Shown here one piece after another: positions 11,914 through 61,716 of a stretch of 64,000 nucleotides of DNA. A program made the translations under genes and the position numbers. The notes beneath the pieces are model-generated. The model searched no databases, had not been told where the DNA came from, and worked only from the letters and a program-made list of their open reading frames with translations. Position 1 is the first letter of the stretch; every line of letters starts with the position of its first letter. The stretch is from the NCBI RefSeq assembly GCF_001447785.1, contig NW_015176486.1, positions 91,862 through 155,861 on the forward strand, written 5' to 3'. The stretch comes from Gekko japonicus. Lineage: Eukaryota.

Positions 11914-14900
11914 ATGCATTGCCCCACATGGCTGACCCTCTTCTTGTGGTATTGCTCTCAGAACACAGCGGTTGTATCCCATTCTTTCCTGCCACCCCCA
12001 CTGTCAGTCACCTGTTCGGACCCTCAACACCGAGTCTATCAGAAGCGGGACAATGAACACCATGTCTCATGCTTGTGGGACAGGGACATCCACCTGGAGT
12101 ATTNNNNNNNNNNNNNNNNNNNNNGTGAACAGCAGCCCCCTCCTCACTGCCGCTGGTACCGAGACTCCATCTTGGTTCACCATACAAATAACTGGTCAGG
12201 ACGACTGGTGGTGGGCGCAGGCTTGGTCAGCAGAGCTTCCTATCCACCTTGGGTCTTCACACGTATCACCGTGCAGTGTGTGTCATCTGTGTGCTATGGG
12301 CCCACGTGCCTCCACCACAACCTGAGCATTGAAGTGACTGGGCAGGATGTCCGTCTCTTCCTGCTTCGGCCACGCCAGCTTCCCGTCCGTGAATGGCAGC
12401 CAGTGGAGTTGGGTTGGTGTGCACGCCTTAAGAGATCTACCTGGATCTACCGCTTCAGGAGTCAGGGGGGAAGTCCTGAAGGCCAGCTTATTCCCAGCAA
12501 CCAGCACAGCGAACCAACTGCAGCCACTGTTTACCCCCATGCAGAATTGCACCAAGTGTGTGAATCCTATTATAGCTACCACACGACAGTGAGGTACCCA
12601 GTGCGTGGATTCTACACTGTGTCACTCCACATTGAAAACGGGCCTCAGTCGAGTCGTAGCCTAGAGTTGCAAGTGCAGCCTGCCCTGCTTCATGTCTTCA
12701 CTGCCTCTTCCAAACTGCTGGGCTTCCCCCAGAGGACACTCAGCCTTTCCTGGACCCTCCAACCTCTCAGCTCCAGAATAACAGCTTTCATGTTGGCGGA
12801 GGAGCAGGGTCGGGGGGACTGGGACCACTCATGCAGTTATAACCCATTTGCTCTAGAACGTAATTTCTGTGCTGCACCCAAACCACAACATTCCGGGGAG
12901 AAAGTCATATCCAGCATCTACTTCCATACCAACAAAAGGATATCTGGAGAACTGAGAGGCAAACTCAATTTTGGGAGAGACACCCTACTTTTCACAGCAA
13001 GCAGAACGTCTCCAGCTCATCTCACCCTCAACCCGTGGAAGATAAGGACCGGCATTTACATTTTTAGCCATAAACAGGGCCTCTTCTATTCCACTCAAAA
13101 AAGCAGTGCTGTCAATGCCGCTGGTGACAACGCCAGCTCCCACTACATCTTTTACCAGCAGGAGAGCATCTCTTACCTCATCATCCTTAAATTTCTCCAG
13201 CGGCGATGGTATCGGTTCAACATGCACGTGTATTTGAACCGCAGAGGGATTCTATTCGGGTCTCTAGGAGAAAAAGGTATAGAAGTTCATGTTTTCAGTG
13301 ATCATTCGCCTGATAAAAACTTGGTCTATATTGTGTGGTTTATTCCTGTACAGCATCCTCTGTTGCAGTGTGAGTGGGCCTTCAACTTGCAACTTTTTGA
13401 TTCAAAGAACAACCATCTGGTTTGGAACAATACTTATTCTTACAAGGATCGTGTCAGAAACGCTGCCCGTTTTCTTCCCCAGTCTCTTTTACCTTTCAGA
13501 ACTGCACTCTACACAGGCTTTGTGGCAGAAGTGAACTGCAGAAGGACTGGACTTGCTCGAGCTGTTTTGAAAGCCACAGTCCACACTTACGCATCAAAGG
13601 TCTTAAAACCAGAGGTGCCTTGTCAAAAGAGTTTCTGTCATGAAGTGACTGCCGTAATCCAGAAACCCGATCCTTCTAACCCAGTCACAAGCTACTCAAG
13701 ACAGTCAGCAATTACCTTGAGAGCAACTGCAAAGGCACTGTGTAGGACACGTTCACATGTAGATATAATCTGGGAAATCTCCGGTGTTCATAATTCAGTC
13801 CCATCAGGAGCAACTAGCAGGATAAGGACAGGCGGAGTCACATTTCACATGCCCGGAAAGCTATTAAAGCCCGGCTTATATCGTCTCAGAATGACCATGA
13901 CAGTATACCTACCAGAATATAATATAACCATCAGAGAGTCTGATTCAGTTACCATAGATATTGTAGAAAGCGATCTGCTAGCAGTCATAGCCGGAGGCTC
14001 TTTCAGGACAGTAGGTGTTTCTGATCGTTGGACTTTGGATGCATCCGCTTCTTCTGACCCGGATTCAGACAACCCCCAGGAAGGACTCTTGCTTAACTGG
14101 TTGTGCTCCAAACGAGAATCAGATTTTTTAGAGCGGAAGCTGAGCCCACGTGGAAGATGCCGTCCAGATCAAGAGACTTTGAAATGGACGGATTCCCACA
14201 ATCCAGTCCAAACAGTACAACAAGAAACATTTCAACCAAATAATACGTATTATTTTGTTCTGAGAATTACTAAAGACAGAAAAACAGCAGATGCTTATCA
14301 GACAGTTCAGGTACTGCCTGGCTCTCTTCCTGTGCTGAATTTCACCTGTATTCAAAACTGTGGAAGAAACATTATACCAGCTAAAAGACTAATTCTTTAT
14401 GGGAAATGTTTAAACTGTAAAGGTAAACCGGTCATCTACCACTGGTCTCTTCTTTCATCAAGCTCCAAGAAAATACCCTTTGACTGGGATGCCAAAACTT
14501 CCACTGGGAGGTCAAATCCCTACCTAAGCATCAATCCTTTGGCTTTCAACACTTTGCCACACAAATCTTACACTCTTAGCCTCACAGCAAGCACGCAAGG
14601 AAGCCAAGAAGCTACTTACAAATATTCATTTTCTATTAATGCTCCACCACGGATTGGGAAGTGTAGCATTTATCCAAGGGTAGGCACAGCATTCCTTACG
14701 ACATTTGTTGTCCAGTGTAGTGGATTTGAAGATGAACATGGACCTCTTACATATAAAATCACGGCGCATTCTGACGAAACGAAAATAGGTAAAACGTCAT
14801 TTCTAGAGAATACTTCACTTGGAACAGTAGTATATGTAGGTCATCAGCATAAAATTCTTCCATCTTTTCTTCCCCTTGGTGCACCATCTAAAAATTATGC

Positions 14901-17900
14901 CTTGATAGTGTGTGTTCAAGTGTATGATGCCCTTGGAGCATATTCTCAAGAAAGTTTGCAAGCCACGGTGCATGATCCGAGAAAGAATAAGCCAACTGAT
15001 GGTGTTCTCAATGAACTACACAATTTAATCAGTGGCCCCACGGCAATCTTCTTCGAAGCAAAGGATTACTTTAATATAGGTTATTATACATATATGGCGG
15101 CCTCAGTATTAAACAATATTGAGGCATCACCAGCCATTCATGGCTCTAAAACTGATTTGCGGGAAGCTTTCCTTAATGTGTCTGCAAGGATTCCAATGAC
15201 TGAGGTTGAGGTAATAAGGCAAGTGATTGCCAGTATCTGTCAAATAACACAGGATGTCACAGAAGTAAATGGGAAATCACAGCTTCTCGCAGTGAGAAAA
15301 CTAAAAGAAGCCAGCGAAGCTCTACAAAGGCACAAAACCCAAGACCTGGGTTCTAAGGAAACAGAAATCCTTGTCCATGGTATATTTACTGGGCTGTCAA
15401 ATGTGTTGGCAGCTGCTCTATTAAAAAGTAGGCACGTCAATGTAAATTCAGTTAAGGAAACCATTGCTGTGACAGAGATACTAGCAAACTTAGTATTACA
15501 GGACAAAGTACCTGGAGAGTACGAAACTAATCTAGAAACTAAATACTGGGCCATTCATCTACGGAAAGATGAGAAGCAGGATGTTTCTCACACTTTTAAA
15601 GAAAGAAACTGTAAGAACTGCTTCTATCCCAAACTGAAGAAGGAAAATGACACTGACTTACCGGCAGATGCTGTGGTTTCCACAGTTTTGTATGAATTTG
15701 TTGAGAATCCCTTCCCTTGGCTTTTGGACACAGTAGTTAGTCACACAATAGTGACTGGGTTTAGGATGACCGCCGCGAAAGAAAATGGTGACATCGTAGG
15801 GATCACACCTGAGATTGCAGAAGTGATGATAGACATACAACACAAGGATTCCACCACCTTTGGCCTAACTGTAGGGCCAGCTAAAAATCACCATAAGACA
15901 ACAGGAGGCTTTAGTTTTGAAGTGAAGAGAATCTCCAAAGACGTATTTATCCAGATTGTGAGTAACCTAACGGTTACTTTCAATGTCTCTCTCTACCTTG
16001 GGCTCAATGTCAGCCATCCTCCAATAATTTCTTATATTGCTTCCTCTGACAAACCTCCAGTACTCAGTGGAAAGCATTCTAATATTAGTAACTGTGCAAT
16101 TAAGGCTCCATATATCCTTTGTCTTCCTCAGTCGTTGCTTCGGACTTTAGTGGAAGGCAGCTCAGCAGACAAATGGAACATCTCGGTTGTCTTACAATCC
16201 CATCCTATTGTGAGAGCCCAAACCACAAAGATTGTTCGCATTGCTGTTTTTGCAGCGGAGTGTCTAGATTTAGATGGGGTTCAGAACCAGTGGAGAGAAG
16301 GAACATGCAATCTTGGGTCTCAGACCAGCTGGTCCAAGATACATTGTATTTGCAAATTAAAAGACAGTGTCATAAGAACAAAAAGGTCCAGGTCGACAGG
16401 GACCTCCAGATTGGGTACCAGATTTCTGAGTGGTACATTTCAGCTTTATCCCAATCCTTTGGATATAAACAAGGTCCTTTTAGCAGAATTTGACACAACT
16501 CCAGTGACACTATTTACAGTGTTTTTCATTTTTGCAATCTACATCTTTCTGATTATCTGGGCCACAATCAAAGATAAAGTCGATATGAAAAGAAAAGACA
16601 AAATCCTTGTTTTGCCAGATAATGACCCTTTTCACAGAGTTTGCTACCTGGTCACTGTATACACAGGAAGTCGGCTGGGATCTGGAACCACAGCGGATGT
16701 CTTTATCGAACTGACAGGCCAAAACGCTGTCAGTGATGTCCATCGCTTAGAACACCCAACTTTCCCAATCCTCTTTCGTGCAGCTGTTGACACCTTTCTC
16801 TTAACCACCAAGACAGATTTAGGAGACATTTCCTCTCTTCATGTCTGGCACAATAATGGTGGTGCTTCCCCTAACTGGTACTTAAGCCGAGTTAAAGTAC
16901 AAAATGTACAAACGAAAGAGTCCTGGCTGTTTTTATGTCGAAGCTGGTTTGGTCTCGGTAAGGACTGCAAAATAGAAAGATCGTTTCCTGTTACTGACAA
17001 AGCCATACCTTTAAAAAAGATGGATTACTTCTTGATAAAACTTGCCAAAGACTTGGAAGACAGCCATGTGTGGCTCTCTCTCTTTTCTCACGTTGTCACT
17101 GGTCCTTTCAACAGAGTTGAGAGAATATCTTGTTGCTTGGCAATCATGCTCTCCAGCCTATTATTTAACATCATGTTCTTCAGTGGTGAACAGGACCAAC
17201 AGGTTATTTCGATACAGCTACGTTATATGAAATCTATGTATATTGGGTTTGTGAGTGCTTTCTTTTCTATTCCTGTGCACCTGACAATCATAACTTTATT
17301 TAGATATTCACAAGAAAAGCCTTTGGATCTCCAGACAGATGAGTATGAGCAAAAGAGATGTTTCCTTTTTATGTCTGCAAGCTCTCTCGTAAACTGGAAT
17401 GTCCGATGTCCGTCACCACCAAACACTAATTATAGCAACAATTCTTCAGTGGAGAAGGACACAGACACGAAGACACTAAGGAAGTTCATGCACCGAGTGT
17501 TGCGCTTTATTAAGAGACCACAGTTTCCATGGTGGTGCAGATATGTCTCTTGGACATTGGTCTTTTTAATATCTACAATGGCATCTTTTTTAATCATATT
17601 ATATGGTTTGACCTATGGTTACACAACATCATTGGAGTGGTTTATAGCATCCATGACATCGTTTTTTGAGAGTGTCTTTTTGCTTCAAACTTTGAAGATG
17701 GTTCTTATCTCAGCTATTAGCACTGTATTTACAAAACACTGTAAAAATATCTCCTGGATAAACACAGAAAAATATGAGAAGATGAAGCTGGAGAAAGCAA
17801 TTGTAGATGGTAAAGACATGAGGACGCTGCACCATGAACTTGTACAACTTAGAGGGTCCTGGGAATACGAACCTTTAGAAGAGGATAAAATCATCATTAT

Positions 17901-19539
17901 GAGGGAGAGAACAAAGGCCCAAAACCTAGCCTTTGTTTTTATAAGGGATATTATTGCTCATGTAATCTTCTCATCCTGTGTTTTAAGCATCGCTTACTCA
18001 ACAGATACCACTACTAGCTTTTATTACAATCAAGTTATTTATAATAAATTCTCTGCCAATCTATCCCTAGTAAATAAACTGGAGGATGTGTACAGATGGA
18101 CACGCAATGTCTTTGTGCCACTGATACACAATGATTATCAACCAACCTATCTTTCAGACACTTCAGCTAAAATCTTTGGTTTGCCCAGAATGAGGCAAAT
18201 AAGAGCCACAAATACTGAAAAAAAATGTTTCCATTTACACAGCTTTGTAAATAGTTTTCTGCGTAATGAAAGCCATTGCCATCATAAATATGGAACTGAT
18301 CCAGAAGATGAAGCTGATTATATTGGATCATGGACAAACCCCATGCCTAAATCCACTTCCAAACATTCCAGCAGTATTCAAGGGTTTACCTATGAGCCAG
18401 ACGTTGATAAGTGGAAATATAAATCTTATGGTGTTTTGAACACATATGGGCCAGGGGGGTACAGCTTTTATTTTTTCCCTGGAGAGCAGCGACCCAATAC
18501 AACACTGAGGCTGGATGATATTCAAAGAAACTACTGGCTAGATGAGAAGACCTGGGTAGTGATCTTTGAGCTGACCATTTTCAATCCGGACATAGATCAG
18601 TACTGCAGCATCACAGTCATGTTTGAGACTTCTGGTATTGGAGTTGTGGATGCCAGCTTGTCAGTTCGTACTTATAAACTGTCTACTTTGCATCTTCAAA
18701 CCAAGTCCCAGATAGCAGCATATGGAGTTATGACATTCATTCTGGTCTTTTACCTTGCTGATGAATTTCATATGTTACATCAGGAAAGGATGGGCTACCT
18801 GAAAAGAACAACTAACTTAATCAATCTTGCCATGAAGATCAGCTGTATACTTTTCATAGTGTTAATTGCACTCAAATTCAAACTGGCTTATAACTTAATA
18901 GACTTTTACCTTCTTAATCCAGAAAAATTCGTTCCTTTTCATGTGGTTTCTCAAATTGATCAGCTCTATGGGATGGTTGCCGGATTTTTGACCTTTCTTC
19001 TGCTTTTAAAACCTTATCGCTATTTCAGATTCATGTATGATGTGCGTCTAGCAGCAGCCACCATAGCAGCCGCTCTCCCAGTGTTCGTTTCCTTGACCAT
19101 GCTTACTGGTCTGGTCTTTTTGGTACACATATCATTTGGATACCTATTATTGTGCGAATACGAATGGAGTTATAATTCTGTGATTCATGCTACCCAGACC
19201 GTTGTTTCATATTGTATTCATGTGGCATCACTTCAAGACATTCAGTTTCCATCCAATACATTCCTGGGGATCTCATTCCGAGTCTTATTCATGTTTACAG
19301 TTACTTGTGTTCTCATCAGTTTATGGCGTGCTGTAATTATCTTTACCTACACATCCATGAAAAAGCCTACCTATGAACAGCATTCTGATGAAGCAGCAGC
19401 AGTAGATTTTGTAGTCTATAAAATCCAAAGTCTATGGTTTTTCATCACTCATCAGACACCATCCACAAGGAACAGTGACCTTCTGAACAGTATAATATTT
19501 GGAAAACCAAGAGCACAAAAGTGGAAGGCAGGAAAATGA
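11914..19539 (+). CDS. PKDREJ: PKDREJ-like polycystin-1 family protein, divergent paralogue (copy A), intronless, ~2541 aa
   Basis: Single ORF with signal-peptide-like start (MHCPTWLTLFLWY), REJ module (LDASASSDPDS, CSGFED), GPS-like C-W-C-CxC, TM1, PLAT (YLVTVYTGSRLGSGTTADV, WHNNGGASPNWYL), TOP (GLPRMRQ, YGPGGY, WLDEKT) and channel TMs. Start chosen by homology to copy B (ccaaagATGcat vs cctaaaATGcac). A 20-N gap lies at 12104-12123. Confidence 0.93.
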   Translation: MHCPTWLTLFLWYCSQNTAVVSHSFLPPPLSVTCSDPQHRVYQKRDNEHHVSCLWDRDIHLEYXXXXXXXXEQQPPPHCRWYRDSILVHHTNNWSGRLVVGAGLVSRASYPPWVFTRITVQCVSSVCYGPTCLHHNLSIEVTGQDVRLFLLRPRQLPVREWQPVELGWCARLKRSTWIYRFRSQGGSPEGQLIPSNQHSEPTAATVYPHAELHQVCESYYSYHTTVRYPVRGFYTVSLHIENGPQSSRSLELQVQPALLHVFTASSKLLGFPQRTLSLSWTLQPLSSRITAFMLAEEQGRGDWDHSCSYNPFALERNFCAAPKPQHSGEKVISSIYFHTNKRISGELRGKLNFGRDTLLFTASRTSPAHLTLNPWKIRTGIYIFSHKQGLFYSTQKSSAVNAAGDNASSHYIFYQQESISYLIILKFLQRRWYRFNMHVYLNRRGILFGSLGEKGIEVHVFSDHSPDKNLVYIVWFIPVQHPLLQCEWAFNLQLFDSKNNHLVWNNTYSYKDRVRNAARFLPQSLLPFRTALYTGFVAEVNCRRTGLARAVLKATVHTYASKVLKPEVPCQKSFCHEVTAVIQKPDPSNPVTSYSRQSAITLRATAKALCRTRSHVDIIWEISGVHNSVPSGATSRIRTGGVTFHMPGKLLKPGLYRLRMTMTVYLPEYNITIRESDSVTIDIVESDLLAVIAGGSFRTVGVSDRWTLDASASSDPDSDNPQEGLLLNWLCSKRESDFLERKLSPRGRCRPDQETLKWTDSHNPVQTVQQETFQPNNTYYFVLRITKDRKTADAYQTVQVLPGSLPVLNFTCIQNCGRNIIPAKRLILYGKCLNCKGKPVIYHWSLLSSSSKKIPFDWDAKTSTGRSNPYLSINPLAFNTLPHKSYTLSLTASTQGSQEATYKYSFSINAPPRIGKCSIYPRVGTAFLTTFVVQCSGFEDEHGPLTYKITAHSDETKIGKTSFLENTSLGTVVYVGHQHKILPSFLPLGAPSKNYALIVCVQVYDALGAYSQESLQATVHDPRKNKPTDGVLNELHNLISGPTAIFFEAKDYFNIGYYTYMAASVLNNIEASPAIHGSKTDLREAFLNVSARIPMTEVEVIRQVIASICQITQDVTEVNGKSQLLAVRKLKEASEALQRHKTQDLGSKETEILVHGIFTGLSNVLAAALLKSRHVNVNSVKETIAVTEILANLVLQDKVPGEYETNLETKYWAIHLRKDEKQDVSHTFKERNCKNCFYPKLKKENDTDLPADAVVSTVLYEFVENPFPWLLDTVVSHTIVTGFRMTAAKENGDIVGITPEIAEVMIDIQHKDSTTFGLTVGPAKNHHKTTGGFSFEVKRISKDVFIQIVSNLTVTFNVSLYLGLNVSHPPIISYIASSDKPPVLSGKHSNISNCAIKAPYILCLPQSLLRTLVEGSSADKWNISVVLQSHPIVRAQTTKIVRIAVFAAECLDLDGVQNQWREGTCNLGSQTSWSKIHCICKLKDSVIRTKRSRSTGTSRLGTRFLSGTFQLYPNPLDINKVLLAEFDTTPVTLFTVFFIFAIYIFLIIWATIKDKVDMKRKDKILVLPDNDPFHRVCYLVTVYTGSRLGSGTTADVFIELTGQNAVSDVHRLEHPTFPILFRAAVDTFLLTTKTDLGDISSLHVWHNNGGASPNWYLSRVKVQNVQTKESWLFLCRSWFGLGKDCKIERSFPVTDKAIPLKKMDYFLIKLAKDLEDSHVWLSLFSHVVTGPFNRVERISCCLAIMLSSLLFNIMFFSGEQDQQVISIQLRYMKSMYIGFVSAFFSIPVHLTIITLFRYSQEKPLDLQTDEYEQKRCFLFMSASSLVNWNVRCPSPPNTNYSNNSSVEKDTDTKTLRKFMHRVLRFIKRPQFPWWCRYVSWTLVFLISTMASFLIILYGLTYGYTTSLEWFIASMTSFFESVFLLQTLKMVLISAISTVFTKHCKNISWINTEKYEKMKLEKAIVDGKDMRTLHHELVQLRGSWEYEPLEEDKIIIMRERTKAQNLAFVFIRDIIAHVIFSSCVLSIAYSTDTTTSFYYNQVIYNKFSANLSLVNKLEDVYRWTRNVFVPLIHNDYQPTYLSDTSAKIFGLPRMRQIRATNTEKKCFHLHSFVNSFLRNESHCHHKYGTDPEDEADYIGSWTNPMPKSTSKHSSSIQGFTYEPDVDKWKYKSYGVLNTYGPGGYSFYFFPGEQRPNTTLRLDDIQRNYWLDEKTWVVIFELTIFNPDIDQYCSITVMFETSGIGVVDASLSVRTYKLSTLHLQTKSQIAAYGVMTFILVFYLADEFHMLHQERMGYLKRTTNLINLAMKISCILFIVLIALKFKLAYNLIDFYLLNPEKFVPFHVVSQIDQLYGMVAGFLTFLLLLKPYRYFRFMYDVRLAAATIAAALPVFVSLTMLTGLVFLVHISFGYLLLCEYEWSYNSVIHATQTVVSYCIHVASLQDIQFPSNTFLGISFRVLFMFTVTCVLISLWRAVIIFTYTSMKKPTYEQHSDEAAAVDFVVYKIQSLWFFITHQTPSTRNSDLLNSIIFGKPRAQKWKAGK

Positions 19540-19578
19540 TTTCTCTTTCCACTTAAGAAGAACACTGCTAAAAAAATG

Positions 19579-19584
19579 AATAAA
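19579..19584 (+). terminator. Candidate polyadenylation signal of copy A
   Basis: AATAAA 40 nt after the stop codon, followed by T/GT-rich sequence. Confidence 0.45.
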
Positions 19585-20207
19585 TTCTGTATTTCCATGG
19601 AATTTGTCTGAATATGCTGTCATGTTCAGTTGCCGTCTGTTCCACTTCACAACTATTTCTACTTCTGCTATTCATATGACTCCTGATTCTTTATGCGCTC
19701 TTAAACTATAGTGAACAATTTTTTCTGTGTGTCCTGTTGAGTGTTAAGGCCAAACTAGATTTGATGGCGCCCTCATGGCTGCAACAGGGACACCACCCCC
19801 ACTTTAAAGTGTTTAAAACTGGGGGGGGGGGGAGAGAAGTTCTGTTTACGTGTAGAAAACGGCCAGCCCTTGGCAGAGGTGACTGTGGGACAGAAAGGTA
19901 ATTTGTCATTTCTGATCCAAATGGACCCTTAGACATAAAGTTTGACCAATGACTTGTTCAGTGGCCAACTGTGGCTCTCTGTTTTTACTCATGAAATTGA
20001 CGGTTCTTTCAACAGACTAAAGAAGATGTCCTGTTGCTCAGCAATATTACTGAGTTCTGTGTTGTTTAACAGCATATTCTTCAGTACTGAGAAGAATAAA
20101 GGTAGCATTTCAGTATATCTGAGTTGTGTGACATCCATAAAAATCAGAATTCAAAGTGCCTTGCTTTCCATCCCTGTGGACCTGATTATAACAGCCTTAT
20201 TGAAGTA

Positions 20208-20500
20208 CTAGCAGTAAAGCCCATTGTAGAAGCAATAAAACGAGCTCTAGAAAGATGTGATGCGTAATGAATGCATAGAAAGGTACAGAAGTGGAAGTAA
20301 AGTCTCACACACACAGCCAGGCCACCTGGGGCTCTCCCATCCCCCCCCCCGGTCAAGCCTCCTGCGGCCCAGCCAGGCCGGCCTTGGCTCTCCCCCCCCG
20401 TTCAAGGCCCCTGCGGCCCAGCCAGGCCGGCCTTGGCTCCCCCCCCCCTTCAAGCCCCCTGTGGCCCAACCAGGCCAACCTTGGCTCTTCCACACACACC
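20208..20500 (-). mobile_element. Helitron-like 3' end with internal ~48-bp GC-rich minisatellite
   Basis: Minus strand: gctcgtt...aatgggc hairpin then CTAG|t at 20211-20208; unit cagccaggccggccttggctc(c)n-ttcaag-ccctgcggcc repeated about 3.5 times at 20313-20490. Confidence 0.55.
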
Positions 20501-21990: not shown

Positions 21991-24900
21991 ATGCACCACA
22001 TGTTGTACCCCCTGATCCTCTTCTGGTACTGGGGCTGCTTCCAGTATCCAGCAGCCGTGGCCCCTCATTTACTGCCACCACCACTGCTGGTCACCTGCTC
22101 AGACCAACAAACGCGTTTCTCTCGGCAGCAAAATTACACTCTTTGGACTTCATGTCTGTGGGATGGAGACACCAAGCTGTACTACTGGAGAGACGCTGGG
22201 TTTGTTTCAAGAATTAGGAGGGGAGAGACAGATTTGTCATCTTCTCCTCATTGTAGCTGGTACTGGGGGTCAGCCTGGGTGCACAGCATGATTCTCTGGC
22301 CACGTTCGTGGTTGCCGGGCTCCAGCCTAGAAAGAAGAGCCTTACATTTGCCTTGGGACTCCAGCCGCATCCCTGTACGGTGTGTATCGCTCTCCTGCAG
22401 ACTGCCCTCGTGCCTTCACCGCAGCCTGAGCATTGAAGTGTTTGGCCAGGATCTCCAGCTGCTCCTGCTTTGGACACCCACACGTCCTACCCAAGAACAA
22501 CAACCGGTCCAGCTGGGCTGGTGTGCCCAACTCAACAGTTCAAGACAGCCCTCCCGCTACAGCAGTCAAGGAGATGAACCTGTGGCTTTGCTCCTCCCCG
22601 CTGCCCGCCTGGATTCTCCACACTACCATAGTGGTGACTTGTACCGCATGTGCACCTCCTATTTCAGCTACCACCTGACTGTGCATTATACCCACCAAGG
22701 ACTACATGTCGCTTCCCTCCGCACTAAGCATAGGCCTCAAGCCAGCTTTAGCCCGGACTTTCCAGTGGAACCCATTCTGGTACACATTCTCAGTGCCAAT
22801 TCCAAATGGCTCCATATCACTCATAGCACCATCAGCCTGTCCTGGAGCCTCTTACTTGTAAGCCCCAGAACAATGGCCTATAGGCTCTTGGATGTTGAGA
22901 GCGGGGGGTTCTGGTTTACCTCCTACAATCCATACGCTCTGCAGAACAATTACTCTGTTGGCCGTATTCCAGAGCATTCCAGGAAGAAGGTAGTGGCTGG
23001 CATATACTTTTGCACTGGAGAAGGGGGTACTGGCGAGCTGAGAGGGGAACTCAGGTACTCTGGTGCCACCTTAAGTCTAACATCTAAGAGTGAGCCACCA
23101 TCTCACTTCACTCTCAACATACGCAAAATCAAGACGGGCAGTTACCTTTTTAGCCCTGCCCAGGACCTGTACTATGCCACCCAAGAAGGAAGTGCTCCTG
23201 GTGACCTGTCCAGCATACACTACTTTTTCTACCAGCAACAAAGCATCTCCTACCTATTTACCATTGAGTTTCTCCAACTGCAATGGTACAAGTTCAACGT
23301 ACATCTGTACCTTAACCGAAAGGGAGTCCTTTCACAGAAGTCTTTCCCCGAGAAAAATATAGAAGTTCATGTTTTCAACAGCGGTCCTTCTTTTTTACAA
23401 AGTGTGATCTATATTGTGTGGTTCGTTCCCATCCAGCATCCGCTGCTGCAGAATGAGTGGACCTTCAAGTTGCAGTTGTTTGATTCAAGAGATGAGTTTC
23501 TCATACAGAACAACACTTACACATACAGGGATCGTGTAGAAAATGCTACCCATTTTATTCCTCACTCTGTTTTACCTTTCAATCCTGTCTTGTACACAGG
23601 CTTTGTAGCCCAAGTGAACTGTACCAGAAGCCGATTGATATGGGCTGTTTTGAAAGCTACGATCAACACTTATGCTTCAAAGGAAAGCAACTCCCTGGTT
23701 GCTTGCCTTCAAAAAAATTGTTTTATCAAGAAAGTGAATATATGGAAACCTGATATTTCTAACCGTGTCTTAAAGTACAGTAAAGGGACCTCATTTACTC
23801 TGTCTGCTGACATACAGATGAACTGTCCAAGTCCTAAACAAAGACACAACATCTGGAAAATCTACAAGGTCTCAGACATGAAGACTACTCCTGATTGGTC
23901 AAAACCTTTTTATCCACCTGGCTTTGGAAGGCTAGATCTCGTCATGTTAGAAGTTCCTGGTTCTACTTTAGATGATGGCTTGTATCTCTTTAATTTTACA
24001 GTGAAATTAATCACAGTGGATACTTTGGAGAGTGTAGAAGGCTCTGATTCTGTGTTTGTCCAGATTGGGTCTGGTAGTCTTGTGGCCGTCATTACTGGAG
24101 GCAATTTCCGGACAGTTGGATTTTCGGATCAATGGACCCTAGATGGATCCTCTTCCTATGATGGTGATCCTGCCTTTCCTTCTGAAAGACTCACGTTTAC
24201 TTGGTACTGCACCAAGCAAAAATCAGACTATGTATCTATGACGCTAAGTCTGAAGGGAAAATGTCGCCCAGATCAGGAGGGCTTGAAATGGACAACATCC
24301 TTGGATGCAGTTCAAACAGTGCCGCCTGAAGCACTTCAAGAAAATTCTGTTTATTATTTTTGCCTTGTGGTTCAAAAGGGTGACAGGATAGCTCGGGAAG
24401 AACAAACGGTCCGTGTACAGCCAAGCTCTGTGCCAGCTCTGAACATCACATGCATTGAAAATTGTGGCAGGTCCGTCACTCCCACTGAAAGATTTTGTCT
24501 CTCTGGCAAGTGCACAAACTGTAAGAAACTGAGCAAACCACTCTATCACTGGTCACTTCTCATGGCAAATTTCACTGAGGTAAATTTTGATTGGGATGCC
24601 AAGTCTACAACCGGAAGGTCCAGTCCTTACATATGTATAAAATCACTGAGTTTTGTAAATATGACAGAAGAGACATACATTCTTACTCTAAAAGCAAGCA
24701 TCTGGAGATACCAGACATCCGTTTATAGCTATTTATTTTTTGTAAATTCTCCACCTCAGATTGGAAAGTGCTTGCTTAAGCCTACCACAGGGATTGCATT
24801 TCTAACAAAATTTGTTGTTCGTTGTAGTGGGTTTAAAGATAAACATTTGCCTCTTACATATAAAATCAGAGCAGCATCACACACCCTAACAATTACCAGA

Positions 24901-27900
24901 AAGTCTTCTACAGAAAACAGCAACCTGGGGACAATTGTGTATTCTGGTTATCAGCCTAAAATTCCACCATCTTTGTTACCCATTGGCATCCCCTCTAAGC
25001 AATATGCCTTGCCAATCTATATTGAGGTATATGATGCCCTTGGAGCATTTTCCCAATTAACCTTACAGGCAAAGGTACACGGTCCATTCAAGGGTAAGCA
25101 AACAGAGGTTACTCTAAATGAATTACATAATTTTTCCAGTGGACCAAAGGCTCCAATAACACATTTTCTTGAAAGTGGGGATTACTTTAATGCGGGATAT
25201 TTCATCTACATGGTGGCTTCTGCTTTAAATAACATTGAAGCGCTGAAAAGATTTCACTCCTCTAAGACTAAACTACGGGAAATCCTTCTGAACAGGTTTG
25301 CAGGAATCCCTGCAAAAGGTGTAATGGAACTAAACCAAATGGTCTCAGGAATTTCTCAAATAACTCAGGAAGTCACGGAAGTAAATAGGAAATCACAACT
25401 CCTTGCAGTCAGAAAGCTCAAAGAACTGAGTGAAGAATTGAAAAGGTACAGAGATAAAAACATAGGCTCTAAGGAGACAGAAGTTCTCAGCACCGGTATT
25501 TTTGAAGGGCTGTCTAATATCCTGAAAGCCTCTCTGTTAGACATCAGAAATGTCCATAGAAATGGAGTGGAAGAAACTCTCTCTGCCGCTGAAATTTTAG
25601 CAGAACTCGTCTTACAAGGTAAAGTTCCTGGAGAAAATGAAACTCTTATAGAAACCAGTGATTGGACCATCACCATTAGGAAAGATGAAAAATGGGATGT
25701 TTCTGGTACTTTCTCTAACAGAGAAGTCTGTAAGAATTGCTTTTATTCTAAAATCAAGCCAGAGAGTCATGATGAGTTGCCATCAGATGCTGCAATCTCC
25801 ACTGTTCTTTTTGAGTTTCGTAGAAACCCCTTCTCCTGGTTGTCCCTTTCAGAAGATATGAGCACAATGGTGACTGGATTCAAAATGACAGGAACCAGAT
25901 CTAATGGTGACACAGTGGGGATCATACCTGAAGTAGCTGAAATGATCATGCCTAGAAAAGACAAGGGCCCCGCCATCTTTGAGCTGAAGATTGGACACGG
26001 CAGAGGATGCCACAAAACGACTGGAGGCTTTAGTTTTGAAGTACCTAGGAACTCCAAAGACGTTTTCATCCAGATTGTGACCGAACTGAAGTTTACTTTC
26101 CAAATGTTTGTTTATCTAGACCTCAATACCAGCCATCCTCCTGTTGCATCTTTCAGTGTTTCCCATAACAAGAACACAGTAACGAGAGGAACAAAGTCTA
26201 AGGGCCATGACTGTGCAGCTCAAGCCCCTTATATATTTTGTCTCTCCCGCTCTTTGCTCAGATCCATTTTCCAAGGTAACAGTGCAGAAAAATGGAACGT
26301 CTCTATTGTTTTACAATCAGATCCATTCAAGTGGGACCCAAGCGTTCAGGCCATTGGTATCCGGCTTTTTACTGCCGACTGCTTATCCCTAGATGGAATC
26401 CAGGGTCAATGGAAAAAAGATGTCTGCAGCCTTGGCTCTCAGACGAGCTGGGAGAAGTTACATTGCATCTGCACAGCCAAAAAAAGGACTCCAAGGACAG
26501 CAAGTCCTCAACCAGGAAGAACGTCCAAAAACAACATAAGGTTTTTGGCTGGCAAAATCAATGTGTACCCTGATCCGGTAGATATGAAGGAAGTCTTGTT
26601 GGTACAAACCAACAACAATCCAGTAACGACGGTGACAGTACTTTTCATTTTTGTCATATACATTTGCTTGGCTTTTTGGACAACAAGGAAAGACAGGGCT
26701 GATATGGAAAGCAGGGATCGTGTCATAGTCTTATCAGACAATGATCCCTACGACCAAGTATGCTACTTCGTCACAGTACATACGGGGAGTCGCTTCGGAG
26801 CAGGAACCACAGCCGACGTTTTCATTCAGCTGATAGGCCACCGGGGTGCTAGTGATATACATTGCTTAAGACACCCTGAATACCCAACTCTTGCGCGTGG
26901 AGCCGTCAACACTTTTCTCCTGAGTAGTAAGAATGACCTTGGAGACATTTATTCCTTTCGCACTTGGCACAATAATAGAGGTTCATCTCCTAACTGGTTC
27001 TTGAGCAGAATCAAAGTGCAAAATGTGCTTACCAAACAATCTTGGATGTTCATGTGCCAAAAATGGTTTGCGCTCAATAAGGATGATGGTCTAATAGAGA
27101 GGTCCTTTGTCGTTACTCATCCAACCACACCTTTAAGCAAAGTGGATTTCTTCTTGATAAATCTCACCTATGAGTTGGGAGAGACCCACTTATGGCTTTC
27201 TGTTTTTGCTCACAGCAACATCGGTTCTTTTAACAGGCTTCATAGATTGTCTTCTTGCTTAGCAATACTGTTGTGCATCCTGTTCTTTAACATTATGTTC
27301 TTCGACGCTGACAAGGACGAACTAGTGGTTTCTGAACAGCCATGGTATCTGAGGTCTCTACTGACGGGAATTCAAAGTGCCTTCATTTCCTTCCCTTTGC
27401 AGATGTTTATAACTGCTTTGTTCAAGTACACCCAGCGGGAGCCTTTGCCACAGGAGCCATCTAATACTCAGCCTAAAAAATATTCTGCTCCCATGTCTAG
27501 AAATCTTAGGAACTGGAAAGAGGGTTTGCAGAAATGGTGCGTTGCAGAAATGGCTCCAAAATGTCTAGGCTATCATTTCCAAAAGGACCCTTCCAGTGCT
27601 CCAGATTCACGCAGTCTGGAACAGCGGAGCAGAAAAAGATGGGGGCAGGTGGCAAAAAAAACGAGTAACTGTACCATTTCTGAAGGGGATGCAAACAGAA
27701 TTGCAACGGAAGAGGACGTGGTTCGTGAGGCCAATGCCACCAACAATTTGAATAGTAGAAATGAGAAGAAAGGTCCGTATCCTCAGACAAAACCGCTAAA
27801 TAGTCTCATCATGATCCTTCATAAAAGCCCACAAATAATAATTTCCTGGTGGTATATGTATGTTTTGTGGGTGTTGGTCTTGGCCACTTTGACAGTATCA

Positions 27901-29898
27901 TCATTTTTTATCATATTTTATGGTCTGTCCTATGACTATGAAACGTCCTTTGAGTGGCTTGTGGCATCTAGCATCTCATTTTGTGCGAGTGTGTTTTTGC
28001 TTCAGACCTTGAATGTTGGTTTTTTCCCAACCCTGAGGACTGTCTATCCAAAATTCTGTGAAGACATCCCATGGTCCAGCAGAGAGACCTACTTAGAGAT
28101 TAAACTAGACAATATCACGATGGATGCTGATGAGATGCGAGAGTTACATTACAACCTAGTCAGACTTCGAGGAACCAAGCAATACCATCCCTTGGAAGAG
28201 GAGGAAATCACTCTTTTTAAGAAAAAGCAGAAGATTCAAAGGCAAGCTTTTGTTTTCATAAAGGATGTCATATGTCACTTCATCTTTCTAATTCTTATTT
28301 TAAACATTGCCTGCTCGATAGAAAACAGCACTAGTTTTTACTACAATCAAGATATTCATACCAAATTCTCTCGGGGGCTCGATGATATAAGCAAGTTAGA
28401 GCACGTTTACACTTGGCTGAAGAATGTCTTTCTACACTTGATCCACAACATAGACCACCCAACTTATCTTTCAAAGTCCTGGTCCAAAATCCTGGGGTTG
28501 CCCAGGATGCGACAAATAAGAGCAAAAAACACGTCAAAGGAATGCTTTCACTCACGCAGTTTGGTAAATAGATTTCTGATTAGAAACAGCCATTGCCTTC
28601 ACAAGTATGGACAAGACCCAGAAGATCGACAAGATCACCTTGGGCTGTGGACAGATTTTGCCAATAGATCAGATTCCAACCTTTTTAGCAATTTTTCAGG
28701 CTACACTTACTATTCAGTCACTGATCAATGGAGATATGCTTCATATGGAGAAATGAATACTTATGGAGCAGGAGGGTATACTTTTCATTTCTATCCAGAA
28801 GAACGACAGACCAATTCTACAAAAAGAATTGCTTTTTTAGAACAGAGAAGGTGGCTGGATGAAAATACCTGGGCATTAATAGTTGAGCTGACAACTTTTA
28901 ATTCAGATGCAGATTTATTTTGCAGTATCTCAGTTGTTTTTGAGATGTCTGGCTTAGGCCCTGTTAACACAAGCTTGTCAATCCATTCATACAGACTCCC
29001 AGTTTTCCAGAAGCTAAGCAACACACAAAAGTTGGTGTACATTATTGTTGCTTATATGCTGGTCTTTTATATCATTGATGAAGTTTGCATGGTGGAGCAA
29101 CAGAGACTAAAATACGTCAGAAATATTTCTAACTTAATTAACTTCGGGATAAAGACAGTCTGTCTGTTTTTCCTTTTGTACCTTTCCTTCAAATTTAAGC
29201 TGGCTTCTAGCTTAATAGAGCTTTACTTACATCATCCAAATGAATTCATTCCATTCCATAAAGTTTCCCACGTCGATCAAACAATAAGGGTTACCCTGGG
29301 TTTTTTGATCTTTCTTATCATTTTGAAAACTCTGCGATATTCTCGATTCTTTTACGATGTGCGCCTGGCTCAGCGCTCCATGTTAGCCGCCCTCCCTGGA
29401 ATCTGCTCCATGGCGCTGGTGGTGGCCGTGTACTTTTTTGTCTACATGGCCTTTGGCTACCTGGTATTTGGCCAATATGAATGGAACTACCATACTATGA
29501 TTCATTCTGCTCAGACGGTATTCGCGTACTGTGTTTCAGCTTTTAAAGACACGGCCTTTTCATCCAATAGGGTGCTCGGAAGTCTCTTCCTGTCTTCGTT
29601 TATGATGGTCATGATCTGCGTGCTGATCAATTTATTTCAAGCGGTGATCATGTCCTCCTATGAGGACATGAAGCAACCGGTCTACGAAGAGCCTTCCGAT
29701 GAAGCGGAAGTGGTCAAATTTCTGTGTCACAAGATCCGCAGGATGTGGTTTATTGTGACCTGCAGGACACCACCTGAAAGCGATGCAGAACTTTTCATCC
29801 GAGTCCTCTATGGTCATTCTGAAAGGAGAAACTCACGTCACCTGGGACTCAAAGCCAGGAAAATAAATGGCCGGAAAATGGTTTACCTTGTTGTTTGA
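21991..29898 (+). CDS. PKDREJ: Polycystin family receptor for egg jelly (copy B, canonical-looking orthologue), intronless, ~2635 aa
   Basis: Same architecture as copy A; channel region LKTLRYSRFFYDVRLAQR...GYLVFGQYEWNY...CVLINLFQAVI...MKQPVYEEPSDE and terminus INGRKMVYLVV match mammalian PKDREJ as recalled; lies adjacent to CDPF1 as in mammals. Confidence 0.97.
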   Translation: MHHMLYPLILFWYWGCFQYPAAVAPHLLPPPLLVTCSDQQTRFSRQQNYTLWTSCLWDGDTKLYYWRDAGFVSRIRRGETDLSSSPHCSWYWGSAWVHSMILWPRSWLPGSSLERRALHLPWDSSRIPVRCVSLSCRLPSCLHRSLSIEVFGQDLQLLLLWTPTRPTQEQQPVQLGWCAQLNSSRQPSRYSSQGDEPVALLLPAARLDSPHYHSGDLYRMCTSYFSYHLTVHYTHQGLHVASLRTKHRPQASFSPDFPVEPILVHILSANSKWLHITHSTISLSWSLLLVSPRTMAYRLLDVESGGFWFTSYNPYALQNNYSVGRIPEHSRKKVVAGIYFCTGEGGTGELRGELRYSGATLSLTSKSEPPSHFTLNIRKIKTGSYLFSPAQDLYYATQEGSAPGDLSSIHYFFYQQQSISYLFTIEFLQLQWYKFNVHLYLNRKGVLSQKSFPEKNIEVHVFNSGPSFLQSVIYIVWFVPIQHPLLQNEWTFKLQLFDSRDEFLIQNNTYTYRDRVENATHFIPHSVLPFNPVLYTGFVAQVNCTRSRLIWAVLKATINTYASKESNSLVACLQKNCFIKKVNIWKPDISNRVLKYSKGTSFTLSADIQMNCPSPKQRHNIWKIYKVSDMKTTPDWSKPFYPPGFGRLDLVMLEVPGSTLDDGLYLFNFTVKLITVDTLESVEGSDSVFVQIGSGSLVAVITGGNFRTVGFSDQWTLDGSSSYDGDPAFPSERLTFTWYCTKQKSDYVSMTLSLKGKCRPDQEGLKWTTSLDAVQTVPPEALQENSVYYFCLVVQKGDRIAREEQTVRVQPSSVPALNITCIENCGRSVTPTERFCLSGKCTNCKKLSKPLYHWSLLMANFTEVNFDWDAKSTTGRSSPYICIKSLSFVNMTEETYILTLKASIWRYQTSVYSYLFFVNSPPQIGKCLLKPTTGIAFLTKFVVRCSGFKDKHLPLTYKIRAASHTLTITRKSSTENSNLGTIVYSGYQPKIPPSLLPIGIPSKQYALPIYIEVYDALGAFSQLTLQAKVHGPFKGKQTEVTLNELHNFSSGPKAPITHFLESGDYFNAGYFIYMVASALNNIEALKRFHSSKTKLREILLNRFAGIPAKGVMELNQMVSGISQITQEVTEVNRKSQLLAVRKLKELSEELKRYRDKNIGSKETEVLSTGIFEGLSNILKASLLDIRNVHRNGVEETLSAAEILAELVLQGKVPGENETLIETSDWTITIRKDEKWDVSGTFSNREVCKNCFYSKIKPESHDELPSDAAISTVLFEFRRNPFSWLSLSEDMSTMVTGFKMTGTRSNGDTVGIIPEVAEMIMPRKDKGPAIFELKIGHGRGCHKTTGGFSFEVPRNSKDVFIQIVTELKFTFQMFVYLDLNTSHPPVASFSVSHNKNTVTRGTKSKGHDCAAQAPYIFCLSRSLLRSIFQGNSAEKWNVSIVLQSDPFKWDPSVQAIGIRLFTADCLSLDGIQGQWKKDVCSLGSQTSWEKLHCICTAKKRTPRTASPQPGRTSKNNIRFLAGKINVYPDPVDMKEVLLVQTNNNPVTTVTVLFIFVIYICLAFWTTRKDRADMESRDRVIVLSDNDPYDQVCYFVTVHTGSRFGAGTTADVFIQLIGHRGASDIHCLRHPEYPTLARGAVNTFLLSSKNDLGDIYSFRTWHNNRGSSPNWFLSRIKVQNVLTKQSWMFMCQKWFALNKDDGLIERSFVVTHPTTPLSKVDFFLINLTYELGETHLWLSVFAHSNIGSFNRLHRLSSCLAILLCILFFNIMFFDADKDELVVSEQPWYLRSLLTGIQSAFISFPLQMFITALFKYTQREPLPQEPSNTQPKKYSAPMSRNLRNWKEGLQKWCVAEMAPKCLGYHFQKDPSSAPDSRSLEQRSRKRWGQVAKKTSNCTISEGDANRIATEEDVVREANATNNLNSRNEKKGPYPQTKPLNSLIMILHKSPQIIISWWYMYVLWVLVLATLTVSSFFIIFYGLSYDYETSFEWLVASSISFCASVFLLQTLNVGFFPTLRTVYPKFCEDIPWSSRETYLEIKLDNITMDADEMRELHYNLVRLRGTKQYHPLEEEEITLFKKKQKIQRQAFVFIKDVICHFIFLILILNIACSIENSTSFYYNQDIHTKFSRGLDDISKLEHVYTWLKNVFLHLIHNIDHPTYLSKSWSKILGLPRMRQIRAKNTSKECFHSRSLVNRFLIRNSHCLHKYGQDPEDRQDHLGLWTDFANRSDSNLFSNFSGYTYYSVTDQWRYASYGEMNTYGAGGYTFHFYPEERQTNSTKRIAFLEQRRWLDENTWALIVELTTFNSDADLFCSISVVFEMSGLGPVNTSLSIHSYRLPVFQKLSNTQKLVYIIVAYMLVFYIIDEVCMVEQQRLKYVRNISNLINFGIKTVCLFFLLYLSFKFKLASSLIELYLHHPNEFIPFHKVSHVDQTIRVTLGFLIFLIILKTLRYSRFFYDVRLAQRSMLAALPGICSMALVVAVYFFVYMAFGYLVFGQYEWNYHTMIHSAQTVFAYCVSAFKDTAFSSNRVLGSLFLSSFMMVMICVLINLFQAVIMSSYEDMKQPVYEEPSDEAEVVKFLCHKIRRMWFIVTCRTPPESDAELFIRVLYGHSERRNSRHLGLKARKINGRKMVYLVV

Positions 29899-40139: not shown

Positions 40140-40252
40140 ATGGAGTCCAGCAAAGAGCCTCCTCTTCAGGGCACCTTTGAATGTGAGCTCTGTGGATTAC
40201 GTGTCCCGTACAGCTACTATGGGCAGAAACCTCCAAATACCTACTCTGTTAC
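40140..40252 (+). CDS. CDPF1: CDPF1 coding exon 1 (exon starts at 40131)
   Basis: ttttctttttgcacttgcag|cattctaagATG; MESSKEPPLQGTFECELCGLRVPYSYYGQKPPNTYSV + AC|gtaagt. Confidence 0.93.
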
Positions 40253-40965
40253 GTAAGTATATCCCACGGGTCTCGGACCATTTGTTACTGGTGGCGTTTT
40301 GTGTGGCGATAGGTGCATCTCTGCCACAGCAAGTAACGGCAGTGACTGAAAAAGTCAGCAGGGGTGGGTGTGCCTGCACGCACGCACACACACACGTGTC
40401 CTCACTTACCCTTTCCTCCTGCAGCCTCTCCAGTGGATTTTTTTTCATTCTTCCAAGAACCTCTCAGCCCTCAGGGGAGTCCCAGGATCCCACCAGCGCC
40501 CCTAGAACTGCCTCCCCCCCCCCCAGTTTCTGTAGCAGAGCAGCATCTGTCTTCTCTCTGCTCTTGGCACCCAAGATACTAAAGGCCTCTCATTTGGTGG
40601 GGTGGGGGGGAGAGGAGAGCAGGCAGGCAGCAGGGACTAGTAAACCGGGATTGGGAGGGGAAGAGGAAAAGGCAGGCATGATTTCAAAATGCGTCGCAGG
40701 TTATCAGTCTACTGTATTTACCCCATAGGAAGCTGACCCTGAATATTCTGTTTTTATTATGTAAATCTGCACTCAGCAGATTATTATGGGTTGGGACCGA
40801 GCTCTTTGCACGTCCCTCTCCCCCAGGGACAGGTCAGGGTTGCCAAGCCTGCAGCCCTAAACTTAGTCCCTTTTAATTGTTGGTTACTGGTTTGTTGTGA
40901 GCATGAATTTGTTTCAAATGGAGTGTGGTGACCTGAATTTCAAGCCTGGCACGCTTCTTCCCCAG

Positions 40966-60386: not shown

Positions 60387-61260
60387 TGCCCCACAGTCTA
60401 ATGCAAGAGTAGGCAAGCGGCATAGCAGACCATTTTGCTAAGGTGCCGGTACTGCAGGGTCCAGCGGTGCAGGAGATGGCCGCAGGGCACGGCTCATGCC
60501 TGTCACCATCACCCAGACCTGCACAGCCATCAGCCAAGGTCAGCGATGCTGCAGTCCCACTGGGGCTTGGTTTGTACAACCCATGGGCCATGTACAACCC
60601 ATACCACCTCCATTCTATCTACCAGGACACCTTCACAGGAAGACAGTGCAATTTCCCCCACACACTTGGCCCAAAAATGTTGCCTATCCCCTGGTCTAGT
60701 GCCCATTCTCCCTCTTCCTCATCATAACTTAAAAATATGAACAAACTCTGTACAATGTAAACAAGTTTTAAAGGGAAAATAAAACATGAAAGCAATACTC
60801 ACCCAAATGAGCTTCCAACAAAAATGTTACCACCTATTACTGAACCAAATGAGCTTTTAACCAAATTCCTACCACCTATTGCTATGCTGTTGTTTGGATT
60901 ATAACTCTTAACCATACTAAACAGAAAGTCTTACTTTAAAAACGCTTATAGTAAAAGCAGAGTGATAACATGATTACGAGGACAGAAACCAATTGTTCTG
61001 GCACAATTTAATGAAAGTAAAAAAAACCTTTGGAAATGGAAGGTTCCACCATTAGAACAGGAAAAGATCCAAAATTGGCTGACAAGGTGTGAAATTTCTA
61101 GAGCCAGCTAAAGAGGTATTCCTTTACCCAAGAGCAATCTCTTATCTTTTTAAAAGGTGATGATGGCTTATATTGCTTTTTACTTCCCTGTAAACCACTA
61201 TGAGTTTCTTTGATGGTCAGAGAAGGATGTAAGCTTTTTTTTTTTTTTTAAAGCAATTTA

Positions 61261-61716
<456 letters not shown>

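Follow-up and report, generated by a model that had tools for sequence, protein, structure and literature searches.

The window analyzed here, a stretch of 64,000 nucleotides from Gekko japonicus, contains two tandem copies of the sperm-receptor gene PKDREJ, termed A and B in the following, both of which are long single-ORF genes on the forward strand. Copy A (11914..19539) and copy B (21991..29898) each contain REJ, PLAT, Polycystin_dom and PKD_channel in this order according to a Pfam search, share 47% protein identity and have gecko PKDREJ-like proteins as their closest named proteins. The start of copy A was placed at ATG 11914 on the basis of orthologue starts, which align at residue 69; the first ATG given by the ORF finder is 11710. 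In a tree of 34 rows, copy B groups with the canonical gene, adjacent to the sequences from turtles, birds and platypus, and lies inside the geckos; its ORF, its domains and a comparison of C-termini also identify it as a canonical-type copy with an intact terminus. Copy A is found inside the geckos (gecko clade 100/100) within a clade consisting of squamates only; domain order, the single long ORF and tree position all identify it as A-type PKDREJ, a paralogue specific to squamates. The best tree pairs it with Paroedura as its sister with support (80/89) that is not strong. A 21-N assembly gap inside copy A at 12104..12124 keeps the frame and leaves 8 codons where orthologues have 15, making it 21 nt shorter than the orthologues imply. 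The copy is followed by an AATAAA at 19579..19584 (forward strand), a candidate polyadenylation signal judging from the sequence. Farther downstream, there is a weak match to the start of CDPF1 at about 40176-40253 (forward strand, E 0.008, below the cut-off) and a nuclear receptor ligand-binding exon at 61258-61698 (reverse strand), the gene of which is not named by the domain match. These flanking matches may correspond to the gene order PKDREJ-CDPF1-PPARA of this block.

Three tandem, long single-exon PKDREJ copies, termed PKDREJ_A, PKDREJ_B and PKDREJ_C, have been described for squamates, and gekkotans have been reported to be devoid of the middle copy, as stated in the accessible part of Karin et al. 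(PMC7038749). The locus analyzed here shares both properties with that triplicate, which was used by these authors as a set of phylogenetic markers; the accessible part of their paper is silent on the tail, its loss and a remnant of the middle copy. Copy B matches their canonical PKDREJ_A and copy A is likely PKDREJ_C, an assignment based on rows of Table S4 and on a fused middle-plus-canonical record from Vipera (P0051, 4393 aa), in which annotation joins the first 2000 residues of the middle paralogue to the canonical gene. Between A and B, tblastn revealed a broken PKDREJ fragment of 385 nt (19842..20226, forward strand, E down to 1e-25) that spans the end of the PLAT domain and the next membrane segments and consists of two frames with stops. 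With X inserted at the breaks, this pseudogene fragment joins the middle paralogues of Tiliqua and Vipera (96/89) in a tree of about 123 columns that has these two as its only middle-type references. Trees that put it with gecko A (p-AU 0.016) or with gecko B (p-AU 0.002) are rejected. The fragment implies that geckos lost the third, middle copy by near-complete deletion after the triplication.

The ORF of copy A ends with IFGKPRAQKWKAGK and a TGA at 19537-19539, while the overlapping frame from 19509 reads KSTKVEGRKMISLST followed by a TAA at 19554-19556, both exactly as noted in a preliminary description of this DNA. Copy B ends with KARKINGRKMVYLVV and a stop at 29896-29898. From the Gly codon to the Lys codon, B spans 36 nt and A only 5 nt, so that the approximately 31 nucleotides proposed earlier are indeed missing. 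The shortfall is the same relative to the orthologues of A, among which 16 continue for exactly 27 residues beyond that Gly. The approximate junction of the deletion is located at 19509..19510 (forward strand), after G-K-P, and its placement in the A/B alignment is ambiguous by a few bases, with 120 equally good alignments to B; the orthologues were compared as proteins. As a consequence of the shift, nine new residues (RAQKWKAGK plus TGA, 19510..19539, forward strand) replace 25 and the new stop stands 17 nt before the old one. The 15 codons of the out-of-frame relic of the ancestral terminus (19509..19556 including the TAA, forward strand), as recognized by alignment, profile scores and tblastn, had been said to align with the B tail residue for residue. 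While it is true that the alignment is ungapped and that the stop position is shared, only seven of the 15 residues are identical. Still, the match survives proper alignment: a scan of 127,906 six-frame positions of the window with the B tail gives the relic as the best non-self match, at a score of 41 against 28 for the runner-up, a profile of the 16 in-frame A tails scores it at 41.4 (B's own tail 45.2, next 21.1), and its identity with B at the DNA level (28 of 47 nt) is equalled by one in 10,000 shuffles.

In order to decide which copy changed, A-clade homologues were collected. The 28 hits comprised 22 A-type proteins with a homologous tail, one A-type protein that ends early and was dropped, one middle paralogue and four canonical outgroups; 13 of the 22 were placed in the 34-row tree and the remainder were assigned by their higher identity to A. 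The tail is in frame in 17 of these 22 orthologues (27 residues follow the Gly in 16 of them and 28 in the remaining one). Copy A of the window is therefore the derived one, and the proposal that a frameshifting deletion removed its conserved terminus holds. In-frame A proteins from geckos end with KMIYLST (Paroedura), KTVYLSI (Eublepharis) and KMVYLSV (Sphaerodactylus), and LS(V/I/T) is the usual ending in the A lineage. Accordingly, the earlier reading of a change from YLVV to SLST as decay of the motif has to be abandoned, since a second-last S or T is present in all 16 in-frame A tails of 27 residues and Paroedura ends with YLST in frame. Copy B was the wrong yardstick for decay of the relic. 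Identity of the relic amounts to 9/15 with Paroedura and 10/15 with Sphaerodactylus, compared with 5 to 9 residues between any two of the three in-frame geckos; scored on 13 non-gecko A tails, the relic reaches 40.3 and the three in-frame gecko tails 38.3 to 48.5. Old-frame change in the shifted region thus lies within the range of in-frame geckos, as far as 15 codons compared at the protein level can tell. Decay of the relic after the frameshift was rejected as an explanation in view of its score, which is like those of in-frame gecko tails. The hydrophobic last residue of A was probably lost while it was still translated, i.e., before the frameshift, since the terminal T is common to the relic and Paroedura, the sister of the window's A in the best tree. 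It may be that only the exchanges Y to S and K to R post-date the frameshift; Y to S is also seen in frame in two snakes. A record of 15 codons is too short for dating the frameshift.

The 31-nt gap might have arisen during assembly or consensus calling, or represent a rare allele, in a species that normally encodes the full tail. Of the three N gaps in the window, one is the gap in A with its deficit of 21 nt, assemblers commonly use a k-mer size of 31, and no independent copy of the exact tail of copy A turned up among the database proteins compared: it was found neither among the 28 hits nor among 53 shorter candidates, and among 44 cluster representatives none exceeded 48% identity. We nevertheless consider an error or rare allele quite unlikely, because more than 7 kb lie between the nearest N and the junction, which is itself no long repeat, and because five of the 22 other A orthologues are altered at the same site. 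The last 81 nt of A make up 0.5% of the two ORFs, so that a random error would fall there 0.5% of the time.

A and B differ markedly in how well their tails are conserved. In the same 13 taxa, mean identity over the last 18 residues is 55% for A and 91% for B, whereas the gene bodies are similar (67% and 69%, respectively), and the last 300 aligned columns have 69% for A and 83% for B. Among 236 windows along the proteins, the tail ranks in the top 8% for B and in the bottom 17% for A. The last 18 residues of canonical PKDREJ, encoded at 29842-29898 of the window (forward strand), are near-invariant in squamates, turtles, birds and mammals. Among 97 canonical proteins, selected from the best 120 of 270 hits plus one more after removal of near-duplicates, primates and most unnamed rows, the conserved end position is reached by 87; nine are partial records that are one residue short and one ends early. 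The latter is P0106 from Larus, which, be it genuinely or through faulty annotation, stops before the terminal motif. The accessible part of a gecko genome paper gives a dN/dS of 0.25 for PKDREJ, the highest among TRP genes (PMC10776941).

Altered ends occur in six of 23 A sequences and in none of 24 squamate B sequences (Fisher p 0.009, with lineages treated as independent). Restricted to named orthologues and leaving out the window, the proportion is 3/20 for A and 0/22 for B (p 0.10), and in geckos alone it is 4/7 and 0/6 (p 0.07). Some of the altered A ends may themselves stem from faulty assembly or annotation. Two of the altered proteins, P0004 (net -22 nt) and Elgaria (net +2 nt), switch to the new frame of the window's copy A at nearly the same place. 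When P0004 is decoded back, its old frame has F-L-S-I as its end and the stop in the same position, a result that is partly circular as window codons served as guide. Euleptes and P0003 agree less well, needing 9 and 10 substitutions in 11 codons against 12 for the next best, with a shift into the third frame nearer to the tip, and the A tail of Hemicordylus extends three residues beyond the usual end. The tail of the middle paralogue from Tiliqua (P0024), which is outside the A tally, is likewise without the conserved terminus. Since the 22-nt change in P0004 nests inside the 31-nt change of the window, it is possible that both derive from one shared shift plus a later loss of 9 nt. The two are split in the best tree; a joint clade is not rejected (p-AU 0.079). 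All 16 in-frame A tails have G at position -8 and L at -2, and because of this invariance loss of the A tail may carry a cost. The A tail is thus relaxed but not wholly free.

It is also conceivable that selection favored losing or replacing the tail, as this provided copy A with a new localisation or partner, such that repeated entry into the same frame reflects convergence. In line with this, the window, P0004 and Elgaria all enter one frame within a few codons, and the window and P0004 share the residues RAQKWKA. On the other hand, chance alone would put three shifts into a single frame in a quarter of cases, shared ancestral DNA accounts for the residues in common, and the altered A tails, with 11, 18, 26, 35 and 37 residues, have no end in common. 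Furthermore, the preliminary description spoke of a short basic tail, a feature that is not special in the light of five K/R in the new tail and five to eight in the ancestral ones. Di-lysine signals for retrieval to the ER have Lys third from the end and a further Lys at the fourth or fifth position (KKxx, KxKxx). The new end of copy A is without such a signal as Ala occupies the third position from the end. Taken together, selection for a new tail is very unlikely.

The lost terminus corresponds to the intact 27-residue terminus of B (29815..29898, forward strand), as delimited by the compared C-termini. Two AlphaFold models of the C-terminal part of B, built with 55 and 81 sequences, both consist of two cytosolic helices followed by a two-strand hairpin (LKARKI-NG-RKMVYL), with a tail pLDDT of about 50 to 59, which is low confidence. 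Copy A is thus predicted, with equally low confidence, to keep both helices and to lose the beta-hairpin. The preliminary description regarded the hydrophobic terminus as a plausible PDZ or trafficking ligand. A class II PDZ ligand has hydrophobic residues at positions -2 and 0 of a free C-terminus, and this pattern fits B and 14 of the 16 in-frame A tails but not those of Paroedura (T) and Candoia (A), nor the relic and the new end. The YxxPhi sorting pattern, defined by Tyr at -3 and a bulky hydrophobic residue at 0, is a putative signal present in B and in nine of the 16 in-frame A tails and absent from the relic and the new end. The approximately 18 conserved residues exceed what either a PDZ ligand or a YxxPhi signal needs. 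Searches with the B tail yielded no Pfam family, no usable match in the Atlas and no useful match in the PDB (one at E 4.5), and the 1065-residue model (pLDDT 54, pTM 0.46) is too weak a guide to a possible docking of the tail on the PLAT domain. In a literature search that mostly lay outside subscription journals, including those with the primary PKDREJ studies, we found nothing on the PKDREJ terminus, its role or its loss in lizards and nothing on a PDZ partner for the tail.

Polycystin-1 resembles PKDREJ in being an 11-TM polycystin with a cytosolic tail after the last membrane helix, and motifs in its tail serve ciliary targeting, G-protein binding and PC2 binding according to the accessible sections of a paper on this subject (PMC9672506). 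With about 76 aa, the tail of PKDREJ is much shorter; it finds no match in Pfam or PDB and ends in a predicted hairpin instead of a coiled coil. Mammalian PKDREJ is expressed in germ cells, has been located to the sperm head and associates with PKD2-like proteins, and knockouts are less fertile, as summarized in the accessible part of a review (PMC13218627); family background was taken from the accessible part of PMC5318412. We tentatively put forward the idea, doubtful on the whole, that a hitherto undescribed, amniote-wide 18-residue beta-hairpin ties PKDREJ to a partner and has been shed independently five or six times by the squamate duplicate, uncoupling this copy and speeding up evolution of the whole protein. 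If this were true, lizards would offer a natural deletion series for the role of the hairpin module in sperm.

Copy A itself is open over about 7.6 kb, and neither the A nor the B ORF contains another frame break. Three small in-frame deletions of one to four residues are present in A, as in other geckos. Private changes at otherwise invariant columns of the A body amount to 3/54, which is within the range of 0 to 0.10 for 36 rows. Neither disabling lesions in the body nor an excess of change at invariant sites, as would characterize a pseudogene, was therefore found. With the species tree fixed, the ratio of A to B terminal branches exceeds that of 12 same-species pairs with intact tails (0.66 to 1.23; p 0.0005) in the four altered-tail species compared, namely the window with 1.25 and P0005, P0016 and P0018, among which the values 1.63, 1.79 and 2.11 are distributed; addition of two cross-species pairs, one at 1.81, gives p 0.002. 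The comparison was made after seeing the data and its effect is weakest for the window (1.25), so we treat the difference as a lead. It fits a wider relaxation of A but may also be due to slow B rates in those lineages.

These observations bear on the question of whether the tail lesion marks an early stage of copy A's disappearance, such that A would follow the middle paralogue to pseudogene status in geckos. That the middle paralogue is left here only as a 385-nt fossil and that the A/B branch ratios are higher in the altered-tail species is consistent with such a course. Moreover, the A model from Euleptes is devoid of 73 aa present in the others, the model from Phrynosoma omits a long stretch and the record from Anolis carolinensis ends early. 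Against it stand the intact reading frame and the lack of excess change at invariant columns. The ratio test is post hoc, the window with 1.25 barely exceeds the intact pair from Tiliqua with 1.23, and an intact cross-genus python pair reaches 1.81. In addition, transcripts were reported for all the loci of Karin et al. in another gecko, as stated in the accessible part of that work (PMC7038749). Incipient loss of the whole copy is therefore unlikely.

The explanation that we favor, with a probability of about two in three, is a real deletion of 31 bases after G-K-P that created nine new residues and was tolerated because the tail of the A paralogue was already under relaxed constraint. Single-exon transcripts do not trigger junction-dependent decay; the A mRNA would thus escape it and would presumably retain its AATAAA. 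The protein made from it would be nearly full-length, with the membrane domain and both juxtamembrane helices but without the predicted terminal beta-hairpin module. Canonical B would go on supplying the role of this module, probably partner binding or protein sorting. The new nine residues are likely a by-product without a role, and the loss of the tail is likely the tolerated loss in a spare copy rather than a new function.

C-terminal frameshifts in duplicates are a known kind of event, to which the lesion of copy A appears to belong. In the accessible part of the study by Guo et al., 51 of 69 single-frameshift duplicates have an altered C-terminus, the commonest kind (PMC8872073). Their type C, exemplified by NOTCH2NL and ARHGAP11B, features one shift near the stop of the derived copy, a shorter new terminus and a still readable old frame. 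The same applies to copy A, which carries one near-stop frameshift, is derived according to outgroups and has a new region that is shorter than the old one. In contrast to those cases, an old duplication (47% identity) is here combined with a recent shift that concerns 1% of the protein and is seen again in other lineages, and there is no sign of a new function in A. The lesion as such is ordinary, and its value lies in pointing to the near-invariant last 18 residues of an otherwise fast-evolving gene. As the A paralogue illustrates that the terminal module can go while the remaining protein stays intact, the function of this module is directly testable.

Finally, it could be argued that ribosomes slipping by -1 at the codons GGA-AAA-TGA still produce part of the old terminus of copy A. 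Translation would then continue into MISLST, and a nucleic-acid hairpin covers the region. The site is not a canonical slippery heptamer, the hairpin overlaps it instead of lying downstream, and six residues only would be regained, without the predicted beta-hairpin and with Y replaced by S in the relic, rendering such a slip extremely improbable. The nucleic-acid hairpin (19519..19554, forward strand) is predicted from folding as an imperfect 15-bp structure with the new stop in its loop and may be due to chance. Considered as a putative mutation hotspot, it ranks among the top 11 of 5203 windows as RNA and the top 39 of 5203 as DNA; it was picked post hoc and is missed by the repeat finder. 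A fold of 141 nt at this hairpin has a z of -3.0 and the corresponding stretch of B does not fold; the base responsible for the Y to S exchange completes one pair of the hairpin.
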